Positions 2,024 through 32,127 of a stretch of 64,000 nucleotides of DNA are shown in pieces. How positions within the stretch are numbered: the stretch's first letter is position 1; each line of letters starts with the position of its first letter. The position numbers and the translations under genes are program-made. The DNA is taken from NCBI GenBank assembly GCA_963812605.1, contig CAWEWF010000014.1:96001-160000 (forward strand), read 5' to 3'. The stretch is from an uncultured Verrucomicrobiae bacterium (GTDB lineage Bacteria > Verrucomicrobiota > Verrucomicrobiia > Palsa-1439). Below the pieces are notes generated by a model, which saw only the letters and a program-made list of their open reading frames with translations, did no database searches and was not told where the DNA came from.

Positions 2024-2177
2024 GGTAACACACGTATCAGACTTTGGATCAGTATCGCGGGGATTGCCTTAAATCCCAAACTGGACTGGAGGCGAGACAT
2101 GCCAAGGCGCGATGAGAACGACTAAACCAACGGCCCGCACTTGCCGCGCAGGTTTACCGGAGAACTCGTCAACGAAA

Positions 2178-2834
2178 CTACACGCGACGCCGCTTGGCGA
2201 ACGCGACAAGACCCAGCAGACCCGTCAGCGCCAGCGCGACGGTGCTCGGCTCGGGAACCAGCGTCTGGTCATCGAAGTAAACGGTGACCGGTGTGGCATC
2301 AAGGACGAGATCAAACACCTGTATGGACGCCGTGCCCGCCGGAGCAGTAGCCGTTACTGACAGTGGCACCCAAACACCCGCCACGGCATTGGTGCCGTTG
2401 ATCTCATTGCCGAGCTCGGCGTTTCCTGGCGACGTCTCGGCAGTACCGAGATTACTCCCCGTGCCAGCGGGTCCAGACCAGTAGGTAATCTGCAAGGCGC
2501 CCCAAGTGTTGACGTTGGTGCCGGGGACTGTTGGCGTGAGGCCAAATGCCGTCATGGTGAAAATCTGACCAGCACTCGCCGGGAACGTTTGATAAGCGCC
2601 TGGGACGGTGAAACCTCCCGGGCCCGCCAACTTGTTTGCATTTGTTCCGGAATGCGCGAAGTCGGTTGAAAACACGCCGCCGTTAAAGAACGTCCAACCG
2701 CCAACACCGTTGCCGGAGGGGCTGGTGACCGACCCTTCAGAACCTGGATCTACGAGAAGATTGGCCCTACTCGTTGTGGACATAGTCAGTGTGCAGACGG
2801 CGACGCAGACCAGTAGAATACTAACTCGCTTCAT
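2178..2834 (-). CDS. PEP-CTERM sorting domain protein
   Basis: N-terminal signal peptide; C-terminus VPEPSTVALALTGLLGLVAFAKRRRV (PEP motif, TM helix, basic tail). Confidence 0.92.
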   Translation of the reverse strand: MKRVSILLVCVAVCTLTMSTTSRANLLVDPGSEGSVTSPSGNGVGGWTFFNGGVFSTDFAHSGTNANKLAGPGGFTVPGAYQTFPASAGQIFTMTAFGLTPTVPGTNVNTWGALQITYWSGPAGTGSNLGTAETSPGNAELGNEINGTNAVAGVWVPLSVTATAPAGTASIQVFDLVLDATPVTVYFDDQTLVPEPSTVALALTGLLGLVAFAKRRRV

Positions 2835-3065
2835 AACCTTATCTCCCTTGGGTTTTACTAACCCTAACTATACTCGCTTGATGCAAATCATTGCAGTTTC
2901 TTCGAAATATGTCAAGCGCATATTTAGAAGCAAATGGGAACCCGTGGGTACATCATGACCCCCCTGTGGTGAAGTTGAAGGTGATGAGTATGAGGCGGCT
3001 GCGGGATGGCCAGCCGCATACGTCAATTCACAGCATGTGTGAGATGGGAGCGAGGACGCTCCACT

Positions 3066-3425
3066 CTACGATGAGCCTCTACTGATCGGGGTGATACTGA
3101 TCAAGGCTACGAAAGGTTCGGCACGGTCAAGATCGGCATACCGTCTGGGTTGCATGTGGACTGTGGCGAGTTCATTTTCCCGGAGCAAATCGGCCAGTCG
3201 ACCGAGACGCCAACCCAAAATCATCACGTCGGCGTTGGAGAAGGCGAGCGCAAGTTTTTGCGGCGGAGCGTTCTTATCTTGCCCCGCGTCCGGGTTGGGT
3301 TCCAGGGTGTAATCAATCAACTGGTTGGTGTGAAAGCCACGCCGGCGCTCCTCGTCGACATGGAACTCGATGCAGGCGCAATACTTGACGGAGGTTGTAT
3401 AGCAGTCGTCTTTGGTGGGGTGCAT
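3066..3425 (-). CDS. Hypothetical protein downstream of relaxase (119 aa)
   Basis: ATG at 3425 (MHPTKDDCY...), 22 nt after the reconstructed relaxase stop. The ORF track fuses it to the relaxase because of a frameshift. Confidence 0.65.
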   Translation of the reverse strand: MHPTKDDCYTTSVKYCACIEFHVDEERRRGFHTNQLIDYTLEPNPDAGQDKNAPPQKLALAFSNADVMILGWRLGRLADLLRENELATVHMQPRRYADLDRAEPFVALISITPISRGSS

Positions 3426-6640: not shown

Positions 6641-7000
6641 TGCTACACGCGATAACGAGGTGGGCCGGGCTATAACGCTCACCGATGTCAGCGAGTATTC
6701 ATGCGGCACACTGTAACCGGAAGAGACGGACCGACCATTCGCAAATGCGATCAAATTGAACAGGCCAAGTGTGGCAGAGAAACGGAAGAATTCGGGATGA
6801 CACTTACCCCGCCTCAAAGCGGTGACGAAGCTGCTCGACCGGTGTCGGTCTGGCTGCTCGGTGGACAACGCGTGGCCGCATCGCGGACTGACGAGCGGAC
6901 TCCGCATGGCTGTCGGCAGGATCCGCGTGGTCGCACGAGTCGGCGAATGTCTCGCCGCTCGAATGTCAGCCACGAATCAAACCATTGAAATGACAATACC

Positions 7001-7387
7001 ATGAGCACACCGATTGATTACACGAGGCTGGCCGCAACCCTGGACTACGCGTCGCTGGAAAAGAAGCTGGATCAATTAACGCAGCTTGATCCACCGAGGA
7101 CGCGCAAGACTGTCGCCGACGTGTTGGAGCCACTGCGCGAACGGTTGCTCGATCTCCACCGCAAGGGGTGGAGCAGTGGCCAACTCGCCGACGAGCTGAA
7201 AACTGCCGGCGTGCCGGCGAGTGCGGCACGCTTACGCGAGTGCCTGAGTCGCTGGACGGCACGCGGCGACGGAGCCGCCAAGTCGCGCACTCGCTGCAAA
7301 TCAAAACGCGCTTCTGCGAACGCACAGGCAACGATTAGGGGAGCCACACTGGAAGGAGCAACGACAATCAGACCGGACAGGTGTTGA
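7001..7387 (+). CDS. Small helix-turn-helix protein, probable relaxosome/mobilisation accessory factor
   Basis: LRERLLDLHRKGWSSGQLADELKTAGVPASAARLRECL HTH-like pattern; divergent from the relaxase across the oriT candidate. Confidence 0.6.
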   Translation: MSTPIDYTRLAATLDYASLEKKLDQLTQLDPPRTRKTVADVLEPLRERLLDLHRKGWSSGQLADELKTAGVPASAARLRECLSRWTARGDGAAKSRTRCKSKRASANAQATIRGATLEGATTIRPDRC

Positions 7388-7971
7388 CGGTACGTTGAAG
7401 GCACATGAAATCATCACCGCTTACTCACCGGTGGAATGCTGGCAGACCCGGCGGGGCGGACGCTTCTGTCGCGTTCCGCTCGCCGCGTCTGCGGCGCTGT
7501 CAGGGCGTAGCGACGGCACAGTGTCGTCCGTGGCCGCGCGTTGCTTGCCACCGACGACCAGACAGCGATCGTCAGATGGCAGTCAGCCAATTTGGGAACA
7601 CTCCGTGGTCGCGGACACACCCTGTCCGCACAGCATGCTCTCGCCGACTCCAATCATTCTCATCGCCGACTGCGAGGGATATTCACGCCGTCCTCTACGC
7701 GTCCTGTTTATGACCAGCACGGTCAAATGACTCTCCATCGTGCCATCCATGGGCGCATTATACTGCTGTATCAGTCACCAACTCTGCGTGAGTGGCCTCT
7801 TGATTGTACGGCTCGCTGCGCGCCGTCAAGATGTTCCTCGCTGCGCTGCGGTCCACCGCTGACGCTTCTTGACAGCGCTCGCTCCGCCAGCGGCCTGGTT
7901 TCTAGTACTTCACGCTGGAGCTTTTCACTGAAGGCAATCAAGCCGAAATCCATAGTACGAAAAAGGTGTCT

Positions 7972-23846: not shown

Positions 23847-25144
23847 TACGCCTTTGGTTCACCCTCCGCCTTCGGTTCATCCTCCGTGGGCTGGGCCGCT
23901 TCGCGCCGTTCCTGCTCCGCATTGGCGGCCTGTTGCGCCGCCGCTGCTTTTTCCGCGCCCAAAATATCGGTCAGATCATTCAGGTCCGCCGCGAGCAATC
24001 CTTCCAGGGAATGGAAACCGCCCTTGACCAGACCCTCAGCCGTCTCACGATCAATTCCCTGGATCGTCATGATCTCTTGTATCGCGCGCGCAACTTTCTC
24101 TTCGAAGCCCAGTTCCGCCGTCTCTTCCTTCTCAATCTCTATGTTCCAACTGGTCAGCTTGGCGGTCAAGCGCGCGTTCTGGCCTTTTTTGCCGATGGCC
24201 AGGGAAAGCTGGTCGGGGTCAACGATGATTTTCACGGAATGCCGCGCCTCGTCGATGACGAGATTCCGCAGCTTGGCCGGGGCCAGCGCGTTGGTGACGT
24301 ACTGCCGAACATTCGGGTCCCAACGGATGATATCGATTTTTTCGCCGCTGAGTTCGCGGACGATGTTTTTCACACGCATCCCGCGCATGCCGACGCAGGC
24401 GCCAACGGGGTCGACTTTCTCGTCGTGCGACAAGACGGCAATCTTCGTCCGATAACCCGCTTCGCGCGCGATGCCTTTGATCTCGACCGTCTTGTCGGCG
24501 ATTTCCGAGACTTCGAGTTCAAAAAGTTTGCGGACAAAATCGGGATGGCTGCGGGAAAGGACGATCTCCGGGCCGTGCGCGGCATTTTCGACGCTCAGCG
24601 TGTAGGCGCGGATGCGGTCGCCCGGTTGGTACTCTTCGGTGGGCACGCGCTCGCGGCTGGGCATGATGCCTTCGATCTTGCCCAGGTCGATGATGACGTC
24701 GCTGCGTTCGAAGCGGCGCACCGTGCCGGAAAGGATGTCGCCGGCGCGGCCCTTGAACTCCTCGAACACCATGTTCTTTTCGACCTGGCGGATGCGCTGG
24801 AGCATCGCCTGCTTGGCGGTTTGCGCGGCGATGCGCCCAAAATTCTGCGGCGTGACCTCGATTTCGATGTTTTCACCGAGCTGGGCGGCCGGAAACCGAC
24901 GGCGCGCGTCCGCCAACGAAATCTCATCGTGCTTGTTGACGACATTCTCGACCACCAGTTGCTTGGCGAGGGCGCGAATCACGCCCGTCTTACGGTCGAT
25001 TTCAATGCGGAGATCGCGTGCGGGACCGACACTTTTCTTGGACGCTTGCAGCAAAGCCTGCTCGACGGCCTCAAACAGGATTTCCCTGTCAATGCCTTTT
25101 TCGCGCTGAAAATATTCTACTGCGACTATTAGTTCACCGCTCAT
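23846..25144 (-). CDS. nusA: Transcription termination factor NusA
   Basis: FGRIAAQTAKQ, S1 and KH domains, LSLAIGKKGQNARL. Confidence 0.98.
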   Translation of the reverse strand: MSGELIVAVEYFQREKGIDREILFEAVEQALLQASKKSVGPARDLRIEIDRKTGVIRALAKQLVVENVVNKHDEISLADARRRFPAAQLGENIEIEVTPQNFGRIAAQTAKQAMLQRIRQVEKNMVFEEFKGRAGDILSGTVRRFERSDVIIDLGKIEGIMPSRERVPTEEYQPGDRIRAYTLSVENAAHGPEIVLSRSHPDFVRKLFELEVSEIADKTVEIKGIAREAGYRTKIAVLSHDEKVDPVGACVGMRGMRVKNIVRELSGEKIDIIRWDPNVRQYVTNALAPAKLRNLVIDEARHSVKIIVDPDQLSLAIGKKGQNARLTAKLTSWNIEIEKEETAELGFEEKVARAIQEIMTIQGIDRETAEGLVKGGFHSLEGLLAADLNDLTDILGAEKAAAAQQAANAEQERREAAQPTEDEPKAEGEPKA

Positions 25145-25180
25145 AAGCGTTCCGTATCCTTCGTCGGCACAACCCTTTCA

Positions 25181-25216
25181 GGGAACAAAAAAGTGGGTTT
25201 TTGACCCACTGGTTCC
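25181..25216 (-). promoter_or_regulatory. rimP-leader-like attenuator hairpin upstream of nusA
   Basis: Minus strand AGTGGGT-caaaa-ACCCACT followed by a T-run, about 40 nt before the nusA start. Confidence 0.7.
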
Positions 25217-25334
25217 ATACCGCCAAAATCTACCCGCAAAATATAGGTGAATCACCGGAATCGGTCAAGCTCATATCAAGCCGGGCGTAACGGGCTTGTT
25301 TTGCGACGCGCCGGGCCCTTACAATGCGCGGCCA

Positions 25335-25960
25335 ATGAACCTGCCGAACAGGTTGACCGTCGCCCGCATCGTCCTGACCGTATATTTTGTCATGGCCCTG
25401 CTGTTGCCGCCGGCTGGCTGGATCCGCTCGCATTTCCCGTTTGGGAAGACGACGGCGCTGATTATCTTTGTTGTGGCGAGCCTGACGGACTGGTGGGACG
25501 GCTGGTACGCTCGGCGGCACAATATGGAGACGAGCTTCGGCATGCTGTTGGACCCGCTGGCTGATAAAATCCTGACGACGGCGGCTTTCATCTGCTTTAT
25601 CGAGCAGCCCAGCTACCGACCGGGCGTGCCATTGGTCCAGGCGTGGATGGTGCTGGTGATCGTGGCGCGGGAATTCCTCGTCACGGGACTGCGATTGTTG
25701 GCCGTCCAACAGGGCGTCGTGCTGCGCGCCGAGCGGCTGGGCAAACACAAGACCGTCTCGCAAATGGTGACGATTATTTTCATCCTGCTTGGATTGGCCG
25801 CCCGTGAGGATTGGAATTGTTTTGGCTGGAGCCTCAGCGGTTCAACGTGATATTTTCACGGTCGGCGTTCGGGTTGATGCTGTTGACCGTTGGGCTGACG
25901 CTTCTCTCGGGCATCGTCTATTTCTACAAGAACGGGGAACGCTTCCTTCATGATGCGTGA
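25335..25960 (+). CDS. pgsA: CDP-diacylglycerol--glycerol-3-phosphate 3-phosphatidyltransferase; frameshift near 25835
   Basis: MNLPNRLTVAR, TDWWDGWYAR...FGMLLDPLADK, REFLVTGLR, GKHKT. Confidence 0.93.
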
Positions 25961-26421
25961 TCGACTTGTCAAATTCGTGGCAACTGGCTTTGGGGTTGGT
26001 TATGTGCCGGTGGCACCGGGTATCCGCCGGCTCGCTGGTGGGGATCGGCTTCTGGTGGGCGCTGAACCAAACGCAGCATGTCTGGCTGCGCGGTCTATTA
26101 CTGGTGCTCGCCATTGCGCTGGCCGTGTGGTTCGCGGGCGCCGCTGCGGAATTGATGCATCATCCCGACCCGTCGAGTGTCGTGATCGACGAGATCGTGG
26201 CGATGCCCCTGGTGATGATCGGTTTGGGCGCGCGTTGGTGGCATGTGGTTGTGGCGTTTGCGCTCTTTCGTCTTTTCGACATTTGGAAACCACCACCCGT
26301 TCGTGAAGCGGAGGATTTTTCAGGAGGGATTGGAATCGTGTTGGATGATCTGTTGGCCGCCGCCTATGCTTGCCTGGCGACGCATCTGGTCGTGTATTTG
26401 GTCAGTTTGACGGGGCGTTGA
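25953..26421 (+). CDS. pgpA: Phosphatidylglycerophosphatase A; frameshift near 26025
   Basis: ATGFGVGYVPVAPG, DPSSVVIDEIV, FRLFDIWKP, GIVLDDLLA. Confidence 0.92.
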
Positions 26422-26653
26422 GCTTGGCGAGGAAAACCTCGAGCTGGCCGGTGTCGAAGTTGGCAAGGACATGACCATCCACGACGATGGTGGGAACAAA
26501 ACGCTGGCCGGAAAGACGCCGCATCTCCTTGTCGGCAGCCGCGTCGCAGCCCACGTCAATTTCCTCAAACGCGATGCCGTGCGCCTTCAAATAATCCTTG
26601 GCTTCAACGCACCAGCCGCACCAATTGCGCGAGTAAAGTTTGACGTGCCGCAT
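26402..26653 (-). CDS. Glutaredoxin/NrdH-like redoxin (intact copy)
   Basis: VKLYSRNWCGWCVEAKDYL CxxC motif, VPTIVVDG. Confidence 0.92.
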   Translation of the reverse strand: MRHVKLYSRNWCGWCVEAKDYLKAHGIAFEEIDVGCDAAADKEMRRLSGQRFVPTIVVDGHVLANFDTGQLEVFLAKLNAPSN

Positions 26654-26666
26654 GATTTTTCCTTGT
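26488..26666. repeat. Left copy of 179-bp direct repeat (5' part of glutaredoxin gene)
   Basis: Matches 28064-28242 at 171/179 positions by manual alignment. Confidence 0.95.
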
Positions 26667-26985
26667 TATTAAGATGCACAAGTGGAAAAGGAAGTCGCAC
26701 TATAATGCACAAGTCGAAGTAGAGGAAGGAGAGGTTTTTTGAGCATTCCTTCCATCTCGTTTCGTTGTCGCCCGTTCAGACTTCTCGCTCAACGTTTTGG
26801 CCCTGTGATAACGTGTCGGATTTTGCGGCGAAATAGCAAACTGTTGGAAAAGCACCATTTGTCATGAAAACTGGTGTGATTTCTGTGGACGGTGGCTGCG
26901 AATTGGCTGGTTGCAGAGGTACGAGTCCTGCCTGCGAGGGCTCTTGCTTGGTGAAGTGGATTTGGTACGCTAATATCTTGACCGT

Positions 26986-27297
26986 ATGGAGATTCCATCT
27001 TCACAGTGCCCTGTAACAGAGTTGAAGCCCCGTGGCTGGCCTTACGCATTGGAGAGCGTCGTTGCATTGCTTCTTATGGGATTCTTCATCCCCATTAATT
27101 ATCCAGGTGGGCATGGTCATCCGTACTGTGGAGTTAATGGTGCAGCATTTGCAGTGTTATGCGCTGCCATCTGTTGCCACGGATATCTGTGGTGTCCCCG
27201 ACATCTGCTTTGGGCGAAGGCCGTCACCTTCATTTCCCTCACACTTTCCTTGAGTTTCACCATGTGGTGCGTGCTTACGTACATTTTGCACACTTGA
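26986..27297 (+). CDS. Small membrane protein (about 3 TM helices), lower GC than flanks
   Basis: Hydrophobic stretches VVALLLMGFFI, AFAVLCAAICC, AVTFISLTLSLSFTMWCVL. Confidence 0.5.
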   Translation: MEIPSSQCPVTELKPRGWPYALESVVALLLMGFFIPINYPGGHGHPYCGVNGAAFAVLCAAICCHGYLWCPRHLLWAKAVTFISLTLSLSFTMWCVLTYILHT

Positions 27298-27526
27298 GTC
27301 GCTTCACTTGCCGAGTTGCTCTAGTAAATACGGAAACCTTTGTGAGTTGAAACCGCAAGGTTCGCAAACCGTCCAAAGCGGGGAGTCTCGGAAGTGGCGG
27401 GAGGCAGGGTTAGAATTGAGGCGGAGAGGGGCCAGCGCAAGGGGTTCACCCCTGCGCGGCCCCTCCGCCCCTGAAGTGTGTTAGATGACGAGCTGACGGG
27501 GTGCAAGGAGCGGCGAGGTGGGGGGG

Positions 27527-27763
27527 CTACGGGCGGCGTCGGGACGCAATCCAGAGGTCGAACATGGCGGGCCTGTCGGAAAAGTGACGGTGGCATCGTC
27601 GGCAGAGACAAATCCCATTGTCGAGGACAAGTTGGAGGGACGGCGTGCGGGAACGGGGGATGATGTGGGCGGCGTCCAGATTTGTCTCGGAGCGGCAGTG
27701 TTGGCAGCACCACTCGTCTCTGTCGAGGACGGCGAAGAACCAATCGTGGAGGTTGTGAATCAT
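27527..27763 (-). CDS. Minimal HNH endonuclease (78 aa)
   Basis: VLDRDEWCCQHC...LDAAHIIPRS...LDNGICLCRRCH: Zn-binding CxxC pairs plus H-N-H residues. Confidence 0.8.
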   Translation of the reverse strand: MIHNLHDWFFAVLDRDEWCCQHCRSETNLDAAHIIPRSRTPSLQLVLDNGICLCRRCHRHFSDRPAMFDLWIASRRRP

Positions 27764-28063
27764 CGGGGCCTTTCCGCGAGAACGACTCGCTGTTGAAAAG
27801 AGCGCACCCCGTAGTTTTTTTTCGAGGGGAGAGGGGCGGAAAAAAATGTCAAGGAGGAACGCACCGCAGACGGCGGGGGGAGGGGGTCGAGGAGCGTAGT
27901 ATCCTTGACACTCGCGAAGGGGTAGAATCGAAGACCAGCGAGGAGAGCCTAAAATCAATCGAGTCGGACGAGTCAGCTAGGCGAGGGGGTTCGGTCGTGT
28001 CGTTGGGAGGTCTTTAGGGATTCAGCGCCAAGAGAGCATGAGACTGGAGAGGGGAACTACATT

Positions 28064-28242
28064 TGGTGGGAACGAAACGCTGGCCGGAAATACGCCGCAT
28101 CTCTTGGTCAGCAGCCGCGTCGCAACCCACGTCAATTTCCTCAAACGCGATGCCGTGGGCCTTCAAGTAATCCTTGGCTTCAACGCACCAGCCGCACCAA
28201 TTGCGCGAGTAAAGTTTGACGTGCCGCATGATTTTTCCTTGT
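28064..28242 (-). pseudogene. Truncated glutaredoxin 5' copy (right direct repeat)
   Basis: MRHVKLYSRNWCGWC...GQRFVPT, then runs into unrelated insert sequence. Confidence 0.9.
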
Positions 28243-28304
28243 GAATCGCCCGCTAACATCGCAGATTGGATGCCGTTTGCAACCTTACGGTTGCGGGTAA
28301 ACTC

Positions 28305-29887
28305 ATGAAAATCCTGATTGCCGATCCAATCTCAAAGCGCGGTGTCGAGTTGCTGCGGGCCAACAAGGCCTTCCAAGTCGATGAAAATGTCGGCCTGAAA
28401 GAGGACGCGCTCTGCGAAATCATTGGCGGGTACGACGCGCTCATCGTGCGCAGCCAGACCAAGGTCAACAAGCGCGTCATCGAGGCCGCGAAGAAACTTC
28501 GCGTGGTCGGTCGCGCCGGCGTTGGCGTCGATAATGTCGACGTGGACGCGGCCACGCGCCGGGGCATCATCGTGATGAACACGCCCGGCGGCAATACCAT
28601 CTCCACCGCGGAGCACACGTTCTCGATGATGATGGCGCTGGCCCGCAATATCCCACAGGCCCACATGTCGATGAAGGCGGGGAAGTGGGACCGCAAATCT
28701 TTTGAAGGCGTCGAACTCTACAACAAGACGCTCGGCATCATCGGCATGGGACGTATCGGCACGGAAGTGGCCCGGCGGGCGATTGCGTTCGGGATGCGGG
28801 TGTTGACGTATGATCCGTTCCTGAGCCTCAGCCGCGCGAAGGCACTGCAAGTCGAAGTCGTGGAACTCGACGAGATCTACAAGCGCTCGGATTTCATCAC
28901 CGTGCATGTCCCGATGACCGACCAGACGCGCGGGATGATCAACAAAGACACGATTGCGAAGATGAAGAACGGCGTGCGGCTGATCAATTGCGCGCGCGGC
29001 GGCATCATCAACGAGAAAGATTTGTACGACGCCATTAAGAGCGGCAAGGTCGCCGGTGCCGCGCTCGACGTATATGAGCAGGAGCCGCCGAAGGATTCTC
29101 CATTGTGGAATTGCCGCAGGTGGTGATGACCCCGCATCTGGCGGCGTCAACCACGGAAGCGCAGGAATCGGTCGGTGTCGAGGTGGCCGAGCAGATTGCC
29201 GATGTGCTGGCGGGCGGCACCATCCGCAACGCCGTGAACATGCCGACCATCGATGCGAAAGTGCTGGCCGTGCTGCAGCCCTACCTGACGTTTGGCGAGA
29301 AGATGGGCCGGCTGTTGGCCCAGATCGCGCCGCGACGCATCGAGCGGTTGTCGATTGAGTTTTGCGGCAAGGCGGGCGAGTTGGAGAGCGGCCCGATTGG
29401 GCGGGCGGTGTTGAAGGGGTTTCTTGAAAACGCCCAGGGCGGCGACGTGAATTACGTCAATGCTCCCGTGATTGCGCAAACGCTCGGCATTCGCGTTGGC
29501 GAAGTGAAGAGCAGTGAGCCGATTGATTATGCGGAGTTGATCAACGTCCGCGCGTTTGTAGAAGGGCAGGTGGCGAGCGTTTCCGGGACGTTTTACGGTT
29601 CGCCGAACAATCCGCGCATCGTCCGCATCAACGACCGGCCCGTCGAGGCCGTGCCGCACGGCGTGCTGTTCATCATGAGCAACAAGGACCGGCCCGGCAT
29701 CGTCGGCTGGATCGGCACGACCATGGGCAAACACGGCGTCAACATCGCCAGCATGTCCCTCGGTCGCGATAAAGAAGGCGGCCAGGCCCTCACCGTCCTG
29801 AACCTCGACAGCCCCCCCAGCGACGCCCTCCTCGCCGAGATCCGCAAAGACAAGGACATCTTCGACGTGAAGGTGGCGAAGCTGTGA
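28305..29887 (+). CDS. serA: D-3-phosphoglycerate dehydrogenase; frameshift near 29105
   Basis: GRAGVGVDNVD, GMGRIG, NCARGG, TPHLAAST.EAQ, C-terminal ACT domain NKDRPGIVG. Confidence 0.97.
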
Positions 29888-30378
29888 AGTATGCGCGGTT
29901 TGAAGAATTGCCGGTCTGGCAGGCGGGAATGGAACTCGCCGAGAAGGTCTTCCGTTTGACCGAGCACAAGAGTTTCAGTTACAAGGGGGATTTGCGAAGT
30001 CAATTGCAGCGCGCCGCATTGTCGGTTTGCAACAACATCGCGGAAGGTTTTGAACGCGGCACGACACCCGAATTGCTCACATTCCTCTATATCGCCCGTG
30101 GTTCGGCCGGTGAAGTGCGTTCGATGCTCATTTTGTGTGATCGCCTTCCATACTTCGCCGATTTCAAATCTGAAATCTCAGATCTCAGATCCAAAGCCGA
30201 ATCTATCTCCCGCCAACTTCGCGCTTGGGCTGATTCCTTGCAGAACTCGGATATTAAAGGCCAGCGGTATCTCACCGAACGCAGCCGAGCCGAAGACGAT
30301 CAGAAGAAGCGAGCCGATGCTTTCGTCGCCAAGCTAAAGAAAGTGCAGCAGAAGGGATCAAATACGATTTCTGCGTGA
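29884..30378 (+). CDS. Four-helix-bundle protein (23S rRNA IVP/bAvd-like family)
   Basis: RFEELPVWQ, QLQRAALSVCNNIAEGFER, FLYIARGSAGEVRS. Confidence 0.92.
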   Translation: MKYARFEELPVWQAGMELAEKVFRLTEHKSFSYKGDLRSQLQRAALSVCNNIAEGFERGTTPELLTFLYIARGSAGEVRSMLILCDRLPYFADFKSEISDLRSKAESISRQLRAWADSLQNSDIKGQRYLTERSRAEDDQKKRADAFVAKLKKVQQKGSNTISA

Positions 30379-30407
30379 GATCGTCATTCGAGAGAACCTG
30401 CCAATGA

Positions 30408-32127
30408 ATGTCTATGAAACTCTCTCCTGACAAAAAGCTGGCGGGCATTCTGTGCCCGGTGTTTTCGATTCGCACGGAGGATGACCTGGGCATTGGCGAT
30501 ACTGAGGGCGTGCGCCAGATGATCGATTGGTGTCACGAGCATGGGTTTGGCCTGTTGCAGGTGCTGCCGATCAACGAGACGAGCGACGACAATTCGCCTT
30601 ACAATGCCATCAGTTCGATGGCGCTTGGATCCGACGACGATCGCCATCTCGCCCAAGTATCTTCCGGATTTGTCAGTGGCGAAATTCAAGGAGATTGCCA
30701 AGCCGGGGTTGCTCAAGGAATTGCGCGCGGGCGCGGTGAAGTACACGAAGGTGAAGGAACTGAAGCGCTCGCTGTTACGCGCGGCGTTTGAGGCGTTCCT
30801 GGCGGAGCACTGGAACAAGAAGACCGAGCGCAGTGAGTCGTTTCGCGCGTTTCTCGGCGAAAATGGGGACTGGATTTCCGATTATGCGATGTTCCGCGTG
30901 CTGATGGAGGACTACCATGACTGGCCCACGTGGGACGAATGGCCGCTGGATCGCCAGAACCCAAAAAAGGCATGGTCATGGTTCCTGTCGTTGCCCACGC
31001 GGCAACGCGATGAGTACGCCGAGCGCATTCTGTTCTGTGCCTACGTCCAGTGGATCGCTTACGATCAATGGAAGAAGGTCAAGGAGCACGGCACAGAAAA
31101 AAAAGTGTACTTGATGGGCGACATCCCTTTCGGCGTCAATCGCTACAGTTCCGACGTGTGGGGCAATCGCGCCATCTTCGATCTCACTTGGAGCGGGGGG
31201 TGTCCGCCCGAGAAGGTTTTCAAGGTGGATCCGTTTACGGAGAAATGGGGACAAAACTGGGGCATTCCGCTCTACAAATGGGACGTATCGCGCGCGCGCA
31301 ACCACGATTGGTGGCGTATCCGCTGTGGCAACATCCACAAGGTATTCCACCTGTTCCGCATCGACCACGTGTTGGGTTTCTTCCGTATCTATTCGTTCCC
31401 GTGGCCGCCGAAGGAAAACGGGAAATTCCTGCCGCTGACCGAGGAACAAGCCGTGAAACGCACCAGTGGACGTTTGCCGCATTTTCAACCGCACGCCGAC
31501 GACACTCCCGAGGGAGCGAAGCTCAATCAGAAGCAAGGTGAAGAGCTGCTGGCGATGGTGCTGGAAGCGGCGGGGGATACCGCCGTTGTCGCGGAAGATT
31601 TGGGGGTCGTGCCGCCGTACGTCCCGTTGGCACTGGAGCGCCTGAAAATTCCCGGGTACAAGATCCCGCATTTTTTGCGCGAGAAGGACTACTCCTTTGT
31701 CGATGGCAAGACCTATCCGCGTTTGTCGCTGGCAACGCCCGCGACGCACGACCACGAACCGATTGCGAGAATGTGGCATGAGTTGTGGGAGAAAGCCGAT
31801 AGCGGCGACGACGGCGCGCGGTGGGATTTGAAGCGCTGGATGAAATTCTGCGGCGCGGAACAGGAAGCGCCCCCGCGCGAGTTCAATGATCGCATCCATC
31901 AACTCATCCTTCGCGGCGTGCTCAACTCCAATTCCTGGTTCGCCGTGTTCATGATCACTGACATTTTCGGCACCGAAGGCCGTTTCAATGTTCCCGGCGC
32001 GGTCAGCGAAGGGAATTGGTCCTACCGCCTCGACAAAACGATGGCCGAACTCGACAACGATCCGCAACTTCTCCACAAAACGCAGATGTTCACGAAGCTG
32101 GTAGAGGAGAGCCGCCGTCTGCCCTAA
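30408..32127 (+). CDS. malQ: 4-alpha-glucanotransferase (GH77); frameshift near 30628
   Basis: GIGD, LQVLPIN...SPYNAISS, LMGDIPFGV, GQNWGIPLY, FRIDHVLGF, AEDLG, THDH. Confidence 0.95.

Follow-up and report, generated by a model that had tools for sequence, protein, structure and literature searches.

The window analysed here is a stretch of 64,000 nucleotides, and the locus of interest comprises a glutaredoxin gene, grx, and the DNA next to it. A repeat search of positions 24000-31000 detected two direct repeats of 179 nt each (26488-26666 and 28064-28242; 96% identity, spacing 1576) around an insert of 1,397 bp. A script count, with matches at 171 of the 179 positions, agreed with this result and with the initial annotation, which had described the same arrangement. 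All other direct repeats in these 7 kb were 27 nt or shorter. The repeated sequence extends from 13 nt upstream of the grx ATG to the first base of codon 56. One copy is part of the intact gene and the other one is a truncated copy, or stump, corresponding to an ORF (28014-28259) that reads on into the insert after codon 55 and matches the Pfam Glutaredoxin family (E=9.7e-15). The stump is fused to the left end of the insert, and the same junction nucleotide was found in the genome G011 and in the related metagenome contig L108. The features of the locus are listed below.

26402-26653, minus strand: intact glutaredoxin gene grx, 83 aa, CGWC site (Pfam Glutaredoxin, E=6.7e-18)
26488-26666, minus strand: repeat copy A, leader and codons 1-55 of the intact grx (repeat search)
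26667-26685, minus strand: element right end (CCACTTGTGCATCTTAATA), adjoining ACAAGG of the grx leader; in family copies TTGTRCATYTTAWATA lies beside CAAG
26696-27419, no strand assigned: window-specific segment in place of the Rep gene (alignment with L108)
26698-26714, minus strand: second, degenerate right-end-like sequence (ACTTGTGCATTATAGTG), resembling the right end of the G005 copy
26986-27297, plus strand: orphan putative ORF of 103 aa, hydrophobic by eye, candidate gene only
27337-27388, plus strand: one of 22 copies in the genome of an intergenic repeat, about 55 nt long and found throughout the genus, cassette-boundary-like
27420-27469, no strand assigned: GC-rich perfect hairpin after the HNH gene, marking the edge of homology with the Rep-bearing L108
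27527-27763, minus strand: intact gene for an HNH endonuclease of 78 aa, which passes the Pfam cut-offs of HNH (E=5.1e-7) and HNH_2 (E=1.7e-6)
27823-27946, minus strand: conserved non-coding block upstream of the HNH gene, containing TTGACA, which accompanies HNH at other loci
28040-28063, minus strand: element left end (AATGTAGTTCCCC...), a variant of the family terminus (A)AACAKG (junction table of 11 copies plus 7 metagenome copies)
28064-28242, minus strand: repeat copy B, truncated grx 5' fragment consisting of a 13-nt leader, codons 1-55 and 1 nt (repeat search)
28243-28304, no strand assigned: native divergent region between grx and serA, formerly upstream of the whole grx and now driving the truncated copy only

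The 45 nt that precede the ATG (GGCATCCAAT.TGCGATGTTAG...CACAAGGAAAAATC) are kept ahead of all stumps and also in the nine genomes of the genus that have one grx copy, and the serA-like ORF starts at 28266/28305. The intact grx is separated from its native promoter, behind which the stump remains. Comparison within the genus bore out the earlier proposal of a mobile insertion after which grx remains whole with new DNA upstream, while a truncated copy follows the native promoter, and a promoter swap at grx is plausible. A simple sigma-70 promoter scan of 26300-28400 found no site, including at the right end, and the single Rfam match in 26000-28700, a miRNA, was at chance level (E=0.62). The right-end sequence at 26667-26685 is the only site of its kind in the window genome.

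The same architecture, in the same gene, is present in seven other genomes of the genus and in L108, which makes an assembly artefact an unlikely origin of the structure in the window. Grx was occupied in 8 of the 17 assessable genus genomes (G000, which is the window genome, G002, G004, G005, G007, G009, G010 and G011) and its site was empty in 9. Among the relatives, to which the initial annotation had looked for a comparison, some were empty at this position and others had larger, fuller elements there. In the seven genomes with readable junctions the stump ends at codons 55, 55, 40, 24, 24, 19 and 15 (five distinct lengths), while in G004 it is broken by the contig end after codon 34. The repeats at grx measure 57, 71, about 72, 122 and 179 nt; a length that varies this much at one gene does not fit a fixed att site. 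Variation was also found between near neighbors. The flanks of G011, G010 and G015 are 95-96.5% identical, yet the three genomes have a stump to codon 55, a stump to codon 19 and an empty site, respectively. L107 and G002 are 99.96-100% identical, yet they differ by 85 nt of stump, a stretch that ends exactly at the left terminus, and the stump reaches codon 65 in L107 and codon 40 in G002. The variable point therefore changes between near-identical strains. A contig (X2) from a public soil sequencing run, which may be the source sample, bridges the right junction of the window (26607-26757) with no mismatch. Four soil runs gave short low-depth contigs only, and neither joints nor reads from an empty site or a circle were seen in them.

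The contig L108 has the junction found in the window, a nearly identical left end, an HNH protein 79.7% identical to that of the window and a 179-nt repeat whose copies are 100% identical. Its positions 1-1103 align to window positions 28542-27421 and its positions 2168-3366 to 26695-25500. Between the aligned parts L108 has 1,064 nt with a Rep gene, and the window has about 725 nt of other DNA. This segment (26696-27419) has a GC content of 0.47-0.52, against 0.55-0.65 on either side, and the 103-aa ORF located in it has no Pfam match and no homolog among 17 genomes of the genus. The hairpin at 27420-27469 also lies 3' of HNH in L108 and in a second contig, L109. The conserved block at 27823-27946 has copies 70-80% identical adjoining HNH homologs in G007, G009, G016 and G024, and it is also found in L108 and L109. 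The Rep gene was found neither in the window copy nor elsewhere in the window genome, which is 90% complete. The initial suggestion of a decayed or non-autonomous element is supported, and the window copy is both. A separate idea, in which half of the family's hairpin block would have been lost in the window, was dropped since L108 and L109, which are complete and close, also lack the block.

Taken together with the relatives, the insert very probably belongs, as a degenerate copy without Rep, to a family of small integrative rolling-circle elements that had not been described before and is almost confined to one genus of verrucomicrobial soil bacteria. Complete members measure 1.7-4.5 kb; their two main products are a small HNH endonuclease and an HUH replication initiator, which is divergent and similar to Pfam REP_ORF2-G2P. 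The left terminus reads (A)AACAKG, in many members a conserved hairpin block comes next, and then there are a conserved leader and the HNH gene (78-115 aa). The HUH initiator (275-305 aa) is encoded on the opposite strand, often together with a small zinc-ribbon-like ORF whose cysteine pairs were recognized by eye and which has no family match. The right terminus, TTGTRCATYTTAWATA, lies 0-4 nt from a host CAAG, which in many cases coincides with a gene's AAGGA ribosome-binding region. The target DNA is duplicated directly over 57-179 nt, starting at CAAG and with a variable far end. Everything to the left of the variable point and to the right of CAAG is intact, and therefore both neighboring genes survive. 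Of 16 copies, 14 have CAAG no more than 4 nt away from the right junction, the exceptions being two degenerate Rep-less grx copies, and CAAG is present at all six target sites. A tally by eye placed AACA at the left junction of all but three of the listed copies: the window copy and L108, which share the variant AATGTAG, and the first element of L113.

The anatomy described above was found at six target sites, grx and five others, where the direct repeats measure 139, 101/80, 108, 76 and 119/96 nt. The proposal of a grx-specific element does not stand with this range of targets. An all-against-all comparison of the ORFs from 11 copies showed that the shared long genes are HNH and Rep, and small ORFs had no family match. 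An element at a site other than grx, G015:C2, has an HNH region 90-93% identical to those of the grx copies in G005 and G011, a similarity that we read as recent spread.

It is hardly credible that the locus originated by an old tandem duplication of grx, with erosion of the upstream copy and unrelated DNA in between, or by an artefact of mixed-strain assembly. The grx copies within one genome are more alike than copies from different species, a pattern expected from gene conversion between tandem paralogs. Nonetheless, duplications flanked by these same ends and genes also occur at five other, unrelated targets, the three genomes with nearly identical flanks are in three different states, and independent assemblies give agreeing junctions at grx. 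The model of the initial annotation amounts to a classical integrase island or satellite with a grx fragment in its attP; the integrase would then have to act in trans. The duplicated 5' part does keep the gene intact, like that of elements entering the 5' ends of genes, of which SXT at prfC is reportedly an example. However, no recombinase domain was detected in the three ORFs scanned from the window insert or in nine from three other grx inserts and one other element. The complete copies carry the HUH Rep and HNH, which are the long genes shared across the 11 copies, and the repeat takes lengths of 57-179 nt at one gene. The only tyrosine recombinases of the genome are located elsewhere and are far below the integron-integrase cut-off (TIGR02249, best score in G000 92 bits versus 265). 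An integrase-type element is consequently very improbable.

The other repeat within the insert, the copy of about 55 nt at 27337-27388, belongs to a set that forms same-strand arrays ahead of unrelated small genes. It was compared with the attC sites of integron cassettes, which would be imperfect palindromes with AAC...GTT cores lying between co-oriented cassettes. TIGR02249 scored over the cut-off in none of 13 genus genomes and in 15 of 41 family genomes, and a profile of the motif found nothing beside the integron integrases that sister genera have. When folded as single strands, some full-length copies pair an arm containing AACCGC with one containing GCGGTT. Covariation is weak, with a compensatory change in only 1 of 23 pairs in the consensus fold of nine copies. 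An origin of the motif as a tRNA-derived att site was considered and dropped because a tRNA is present at only two of nine motif loci; Rfam identified one tRNA only in four motif-array loci.

The amino acid sequences of the six Rep proteins from the genus share invariant FxTxT, RxHxH and Y...K motifs. In the complete copies these correspond, in order, to HUH motifs I (uuTu; F99/T103), II (HuH; R145-H147-H149) and III (Y..K; Y187...K194). The Pfam family PF23343, REP_ORF2-G2P, matched four of the six at E<=1 (best E=3.4e-6), and the first member tested scored 20.6 bits against a gathering cut-off of 27.8 bits. Among 25 remote relatives collected by a search with the family profile, 19 matched PF23343, 12 of them over the cut-off, and one database relative bears a precomputed match to the same family. 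The other Pfam match of the six proteins, PH_FT_C, is weak and unrelated (E=0.013), and the scans found no transposase family. One of the six matched PHROGs (E=6.8e-4), a sequence search of the PDB gave no meaningful match, and tblastn found no Rep among 72,556 plasmid and 50,697 phage records. An AlphaFold model built with the six sequences has the expected strand-helix-strand-strand order around the motifs and is unreliable (mean pLDDT 45.2). A family-level search found Rep in 8 of the 17 genus genomes, with one weak match in 27 genomes of other genera. A second search found no match at E<=1e-10 in 400 other genomes sampled across the phylum, a sample without a positive control. All eight metagenome loci recovered with the Rep alignment also hold an HNH homolog.

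The HNH hallmarks (zinc-binding cysteines, catalytic His, Asn and second His) are present in the family, and the columns C..C, LD.AH, N and LCR..H are kept in ten of its HNH proteins, including that of the window. Comparison of the window and L108 HNH genes gave a pN/pS of 0.23, and purifying selection still acts on the window gene. No other gene of the family is kept as widely as HNH, which is intact in the Rep-less window copy, several species are occupied at the same site, and the G011 insert also encodes a T5orf172/MUG113 plus HNH_repeat protein of the homing-endonuclease type. These observations agree with a homing process in which HNH cuts empty grx alleles and repair off the occupied allele copies the insert, the duplicated 5' fragment being flanking homology only and Rep being cargo or a replication aid. 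We consider this explanation improbable. The nearly identical HNH regions found at different target genes (G015:C2 and the grx copies) argue against grx-specific cleavage, and homing leaves the defined ends, the CAAG rule and the variable duplications unexplained.

We tentatively propose, at somewhat less than even odds, that a rolling-circle element carries a captured fragment of its target and recombines at it. Copying would begin at the left end and overrun the right end into the flanking gene, so that the product would be a circle with the element and a host fragment reaching from CAAG to the variable point X. The circle would re-enter a related chromosome by recombination at the host fragment, duplicating it, either via a Rep nick at CAAG or via host homologous recombination. 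The fragment would act as an address label and lead the element back to the gene it came from. In the lineage of the window the Rep module was replaced by the approximately 725 bp of unrelated DNA, and the window copy is therefore probably immobile. In favor of the proposal, L109 is a contig of 2,270 nt with a 70-nt terminal overlap inside the element and the order right end, ACAAGG, grx to codon 19 and left end GAACATG; it could be a collapsed tandem array instead of a free circle. Tandem arrays with a right end-fragment-left end junction occur in L112 and L113. Our overall confidence, roughly 0.55, is a blend of that in the identification of the family (about 0.9) and that in the mechanism (about 0.4).

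The divergence between the two repeat copies bears on how they arose. In the window they differ at repeat positions 75, 84, 117, 132, 136, 138, 151 and 168. Five of the eight differences are synonymous changes at third codon positions; the other three change codon 42 at two positions (AAG/CAA, K/Q) and codon 47 at one (CTT/ATT, L/I). A codon-path count gave six synonymous and two non-synonymous. The pN/pS between copies is 0.09 in the window genome and 0.23 in G011, and functional grx orthologs have values of 0.19-0.20. Against a neutral reference of about 0.6, which is our own estimate for one neutral and one constrained copy, binomial P values calculated by hand were about 0.013 and about 0.05, respectively, from only 8 and 15 substitutions. 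The synonymous excess noted at first inspection is thus real, within these small numbers. The replacement 5' half that had also been proposed fared less well. The full grx copy in the window is nearer than the stump to three of four near relatives, which fits a resident gene and an imported or decaying stump better than a replacement 5' half, though either copy may be the imported one.

These copies also bear on a replicative integration like that of AAV. Rep would nick CAAG, synthesis would copy 57-179 nt of host DNA and switch to a repeat-less circle at the left terminus, and Rep would rejoin the strands at the right end, in such a way that the repeats would be identical at birth and the stump would decay later. 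The repeats are 100% identical in 7 of the 10 Rep-bearing copies (L108, G010, G005, G002, L110, G015:C2 and L113), as this pathway predicts directly, and lower in the Rep-less grx copies (95.5% in G000, 90.4% in G011, 74% in G009 and 69.5% in G007). For the capture model, the same identity requires moves within a clone or gene conversion. One fixed and one variable boundary, the variable point that differs between L107 and G002, and the window differences at positions 84, 132, 136 and 138, most of the total and unique to the stump, are also in favor of replicative integration. On the other hand, the divergence of the copies looks selected when compared with the 0.6 estimate, the junction nucleotide shared by G000, L108 and G011 requires common descent or a preferred switch point, and L109 has the grx fragment between the two ends. 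We regard replicative integration as unlikely, though a serious contender, and retain the captured fragment as the preferred mechanism.

If the captured fragment steers reintegration, the family would be a natural model for homology-addressed insertion, in effect a natural "ends-in" gene-targeting vector that replaces the promoter as it goes. It is possible, if rather doubtful, that the family represents a new kind of bacterial mobile element, a rolling-circle element with Rep and HNH that enters between the promoter and the ribosome-binding site, leaves the neighbors unharmed, uses a captured fragment as a homology address and replaces the promoter. The combination of a phage- or plasmid-type Rep and HNH with long, variable, gene-sparing duplications would widen known rolling-circle mobility. 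For annotation, the family explains why, at grx and at five more sites in this genus, a promoter is displaced and half a gene is paired with a whole one, an otherwise puzzling arrangement. Complete copies are tiny (from 1.7 kb), with clear ends and a four-base target rule, and so the mechanism should be easily tested in vitro.

Several known systems share part of these properties. Elements that rebuild a gene from a fragment in attP also keep their target functional, by supplying or duplicating its 5' part together with new DNA upstream. Their integration depends on a tyrosine or serine recombinase and on a fixed core site, in contrast to the family described here, in which the scanned ORFs encode no recombinase and the repeat length varies. 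Replicons of the G2P/ORF2 type (filamentous phages and small plasmids) have in common with the family the three HUH motifs and the PF23343 profile link. The elements described here differ in being integrated, with long target duplications, and no structural or other phage genes were found among the ORFs scanned. The titles and abstracts searched, all from open-access literature, contained no description of a bacterial Rep and HNH element with long target duplications, and the bacterial HUH elements IS91, ISCR and IS200/IS605 are described as being without target duplication. According to one account, IS91 has an HUH enzyme, 5'-CTTG at one end, a subterminal palindrome and single- and double-stranded circles, its imprecise termination (one-ended transposition) carries flanking DNA along, and it makes no target duplication (PMC13181058). 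The likeness of IS91 and ISCR to the family includes these traits other than the missing duplication, above all the HUH enzyme and CTTG, the complement of CAAG. In IS91 elements CTTG/GTTC adjoins one end, and here this tetranucleotide lies 0-4 nt from the right end in the same 14 of 16 copies and at 6 of 6 sites. The differences are the duplications of 57-179 nt, against none described in IS91, the match to REP_ORF2-G2P with no other Pfam family that would fit a transposase, and the presence of HNH. The orientation of the genes relative to the tetranucleotide end also looks different in our reading.

Any resemblance of the family to AAV at AAVS1, where an HUH Rep nicks a chromosomal site, is in outcome only. 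As a eukaryotic virus, AAV has hairpin ITRs, its Rep includes an SF3 helicase, and it has no sequence relationship to these elements. Replitron-1, a eukaryotic HUH Rep transposon, is described as inserting in a specific orientation at a short target, with similar short sequences at both termini, target-site duplications of variable length and, at the right end, a stretch of varying length derived from the DNA downstream of the parental copy (PMC10288648). All four features, as given there, are the same in the family. Replitron-1 differs in its hosts (algae and plants), its short duplications and "fuzzy ends," the lack of HNH and of any described gene-sparing placement at ribosome-binding sites. 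The family would be a bacterial counterpart to the behavior described for AAV and Replitron-1.

The 179-nt direct repeats were located by a repeat search of the surrounding 7 kb at 26488-26666 and 28064-28242, where the initial annotation had placed them, and no further direct repeats longer than 27 nt were found in the 7 kb around this pair. The two copies are identical at 171 of 179 positions, and all 8 differences lie within the last 105 nt: five are synonymous third-position changes, and of the other three, codon 42 (K/Q) has two and codon 47 (L/I) has one. Copy A is the start of an intact glutaredoxin gene (grx). Copy B, the stump, adjoins a divergent serA-like gene, and its grx reading stops after codon 55. 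The features are as follows.

Features of the grx locus and its insert
26402-26653, minus strand: intact grx (glutaredoxin, 83 aa), the continuation of copy A
26667-28063, described in the grx direction: insert, beginning with a short terminal stretch
27946-27823, grx direction: conserved non-coding block
27763-27527, minus strand: intact HNH endonuclease gene, 78 aa (Pfam HNH and HNH_2 above cut-off)
27469-27420: perfect GC-rich hairpin, after the HNH gene
From the hairpin to the right end: lower-GC segment of ~725 bp, holding a 55-nt repeat and an orphan ORF
27388-27337: the 55-nt repeat, inside the ~725-bp segment
Within the ~725-bp segment, strand opposite to grx: orphan ORF, 103 aa

The right end of the insert, CCACTTGTGCATCTTAATA, abuts ACAAGGAAAAATCATG of grx. 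A Pfam scan of the insert ORFs detected no integrase or other recombinase domain, in agreement with the initial annotation, and insertion through an integrase is one of the less likely explanations. The neighboring serA-like dehydrogenase (28266-29887) is read as two overlapping ORFs, 28266-29126 and 29105-29887, with an apparent one-base frameshift near 29100-29126 within ...CCATTGTGGAATTGCC..., which may reflect a genuine break or an error of base calling.

The pgpA-grx-serA locus, which the initial annotation had singled out for comparison, was surveyed in 40 relatives, first with a DNA search and then by tblastn mapping, and two states were found within the genus. Nine genomes (G001, G003, G006, G008, G012, G013, G014, G015 and G016) have an empty site, with a single grx and conserved native upstream sequence. 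In eight others, namely the genome under study (G000), G002, G004, G005, G007, G009, G010 and G011, an insert of 1-3 kb separates a grx stump from a full grx; G017 was not assessable and was left out of the count. That the arrangement is an artefact is also among the less likely explanations. The stump ends at the identical nucleotide of codon 55 in G000 and G011, at codon 40 in G002, at codon 24 in G009 and G007, which have the junction in common, at codon 19 in G010 and at codon 15 in G005, while in G004 contig ends break the stump. All full grx copies at these occupied sites have, in place of the native upstream sequence, a conserved stretch from the element side, ...TTGTGCAT(T/C)(C/T)TA(T/A)TA. 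Since G011, G010 and G015, whose flanks are 95-96.5% identical in a flank-based tree, differ in state (stump to codon 55, stump to codon 19, and empty, respectively), occupation of the site turns over even between close relatives. In the same three genomes (loci L038, L039 and L050) the grx 5' halves are 87-91% identical, against 95-96.5% for the flanks, which would fit element-driven allele exchange at grx.

Other insertions were observed at this locus. The G011 insert (L038, G011:C48) encodes, at 2183-2902 on the minus strand, a 239-aa protein with Pfam HNH_repeat, a homing-endonuclease-associated domain, and MUG113/T5orf172, alongside a truncated family HNH; the grx hotspot thus holds a second kind of selfish nuclease gene. 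In the G005 insert (L040, G005:C17), part of the NAD-binding motif of a 2-hydroxyacid dehydrogenase, LNLYNKTLGIIGMGRIGMF, lies in reverse complement directly inside the left terminus; it resembles the neighboring serA and may be host DNA captured in an earlier overrun. G014 (L044, G014:C84) keeps the native grx upstream sequence and has an unrelated ~950 bp at the other end of grx, between its stop and pgpA; this insertion has an ORF of 222 aa, hydrophobic by eye.

The closest complete counterpart of the window copy is the metagenome contig L108, from an organism ~84-86% identical to the window at the grx locus. Both have in common the stump junction (...CCCACCA|AATGTAGTTCCCC), the left end, the conserved block and the hairpin, and their right ends match. 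The interval from hairpin to right end is 1,064 nt encoding a Rep protein in L108 and ~725 nt of unrelated DNA in the window, which indicates that the window copy lost Rep. No Rep was found elsewhere in G000 (genome 90% complete). The HNH proteins are 79.7% identical, with pN/pS of 0.23 and all catalytic columns kept, and have evolved under purifying selection between these copies. Homing driven by the HNH enzyme is a less likely explanation for the insertions. A second right-end-like sequence, ACTTGTGCATTATAGTG, was observed at window 26698-26714, 12 nt inside the true right end and at the edge of the window-specific segment, and hints that this segment may derive from another family element via tandem insertion or recombination.

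The large ORF of the family (275-305 aa) is, by its sequence, a predicted rolling-circle initiator. The motifs FxTxT, RxHxH and Y(x6)K are invariant in all six genus proteins, in the order expected of HUH enzymes. Pfam REP_ORF2-G2P (PF23343) matched four of the six with scores below or near cut-off (best E=3.4e-6), and a PHROG 'replication initiation protein' profile matched one. A profile of 19 family Reps detected 173 proteins at E<=0.001 among 1.84 billion representatives; PF23343 was found in 19 of 25 remote matches sampled, above its cut-off in 12. The family is tiny: among 5.8 billion proteins it has 17 clusters, none of them named. Rep was found in 8 of the 17 genus genomes; the 27 genomes of other genera in the family gave one weak match, and the 400 other genomes sampled across the phylum, a sample without a positive control, gave none. 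Plasmid and phage collections yielded no tblastn match to Rep, and the predicted structure was too uncertain for use.

HNH homologs at other loci of the genus share 39-64% identity with one another, and four non-grx copies carrying HNH are flanked by long direct repeats. Searching metagenomes with the Rep alignment added eight contigs (L107-L114), of which L111 showed no direct repeat within its recovered part. Genes at the non-grx sites were named by eye or from single Pfam hits.

Target sites and direct repeats of family copies (copy; target; repeat length; repeat identity; Rep)
G009:C10; 5' end of cytidylyltransferase-like gene; 139 nt; 97%; Rep-bearing
G005:C1; one gene's end plus 4 codons of arginyl-tRNA-synthetase-like gene (by eye); 101 nt; 100%; no Rep found
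G013:C66; end of DUF47-like gene (by eye), ahead of phosphate-transporter-like gene; 108 nt; 95%; Rep-bearing
G015:C2; gene end ahead of biotin-carrier-like gene; 76 nt; 100%; Rep-bearing
L108; grx; 179 nt; 100%; Rep-bearing
L107; grx
L110; same site as G005:C1; 80 nt; 100%; Rep-bearing
L112; sixth site, tandem array; 119 nt; 99%; Rep-bearing
L113; sixth site, tandem array; 96 nt; 100%; Rep-bearing
L114; same site as G013:C66
G002, G005, G010; grx; 100% each; Rep-bearing
G000, G011, G009, G007; grx; 95.5%, 90.4%, 74% and 69.5%, respectively; Rep-less

When the copies are turned so that HNH is on the top strand, all have one arrangement: host DNA and repeat 1; a left end starting (A)AACAKG; a hairpin block, GTTACGAGACGCTAGCGCTCTCGTGCTCT, which most copies have and whose stem shows compensatory changes in G002 and G005; the conserved block and HNH; often, on the opposite strand, a small zinc-ribbon-like ORF and the 275-305 aa ORF; and the right end, TTGTRCATYTTAWATA, followed by repeat 2. 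Repeat 2 starts at CAAG or within 4 nt of it in 14 of the 16 copies, a rule seen at each of the six sites, and at three sites this CAAG lies within CAAGGAAA..ATG, the ribosome-binding region. In every case the duplication runs from this fixed point to a variable one; therefore, genes wholly on either side stay intact. In the G005:C1 element (4.5 kb, locus L098) a 17-nt unit is repeated ~43 times in tandem at 6799-7534. Outside the window, at G000:C14:818095, a family hairpin block, ACGAGACGCTGCGCTCTCGTGC, lies directly 3' of a tRNA-Leu(CAA) gene; it has neither HNH nor Rep in its vicinity and may be another element relic at a tRNA site.

As the repeat identities show, fresh-looking repeats mostly, although not perfectly, track Rep. 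The variable boundary seems to be remade often while the element end is preserved, because L107 and the locus of G002, at 99.96-100% identity, have stumps that differ by 85 nt (codon 65 and codon 40), a difference that stops exactly at the left terminus. The main rival to the mechanism proposed below, a replicative route of the kind described for AAV, would be the simpler explanation for the number of perfect repeats and for the rapid change of the boundary, but the selection signature fits it less well. In the window pair, 6 synonymous and 2 non-synonymous changes give a pN/pS of 0.09, and in the G011 pair 8 and 7 give 0.23; functional grx orthologs have 0.19-0.20, and we estimate ~0.6 for a neutral stump beside a constrained gene. 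Binomial estimates against this expectation gave P ~0.013 (G000) and ~0.05 (G011), with few substitutions in each. On these small counts the differences look selected, which favors the earlier proposal that both copies were under coding selection; they would have diverged within functional genes of separate lineages. Polarized with relatives, four window differences are unique to the stump (positions 84, 132, 136 and 138) and four are ambiguous; the full copy is closer than the stump to G012, G004 and L108, by 5 positions each, and not to G006. Between species grx is 75-93% identical and repeat pairs inside one genome are far more alike. An old tandem duplication of grx is a less likely origin of the repeats.

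From these sequences we infer a mechanism of capture. Rep would nick near the left end, and rolling-circle copying would proceed through the element and overrun the right end into the adjacent gene; similar overruns are described for IS91, in one-ended transposition (PMC13181058), and for Replitron-1, with its 'fuzzy' right ends (PMC10288648). Closure of the product would yield a circle with a host fragment from CAAG to the variable point. This circle could enter a related chromosome by recombination at the fragment, either catalyzed by Rep at CAAG or through host homologous recombination, leaving the stump, then the element, then the whole gene. At a new site, the first entry would be directed by Rep to a CAAG, and in the next overrun round a new fragment would replace the old. 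The contig L109 (2,270 nt) has the structure expected of such a circle with a single copy of the host fragment: its first and last 70 nt are identical, the overlap is located inside the element, and the right end is followed by ACAAGG, grx to codon 19 and directly GAACATG of the left end. A collapsed tandem array would have the same appearance, and such arrays exist (L112 and L113). Capture would account for the selected-looking divergence in G000 and G011, the junction common to G000, L108 and G011, and the structure of L109 together with the return to grx in many species.

The ~55-nt repeat (core AACCGCAAGGTTCGCAAACCGTCCAAAGCGGGGA) has 22 copies in G000, one of them at window 27337-27388, on contigs C1, C2, C6, C8, C10 and C14 (e.g., L009, C6:448000-462000, and L010, C6:348000-360000). 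They form same-strand clusters spaced by 300-2300 bp, each copy just 5' of an unrelated small gene (by eye NUDIX-like, lipoprotein-like, PIG-L-like and others), and the fold of some full-length copies is an imperfect palindrome of ~95 nt that takes in the ribosome-binding site of the next gene. By their sequence these arrays look like cassette arrays; an integron integrase was found in none of 13 genus genomes and in 15 of 41 family genomes.

The open-access literature searched, mostly at the level of abstracts, gave no account of a bacterial element of this kind. In its mode of action the element would resemble rolling-circle transposons of the IS91 or Replitron type, and it belongs to neither; likewise, it resembles AAV integration in outcome without being a member of that system. 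Its enzyme is a predicted G2P/ORF2-type Rep, and the scans gave no transposase family. IS91 elements make no target duplications (PMC13181058), whereas the element has long ones. The HNH gene that it carries also sets it apart from the IS91 and Replitron systems.
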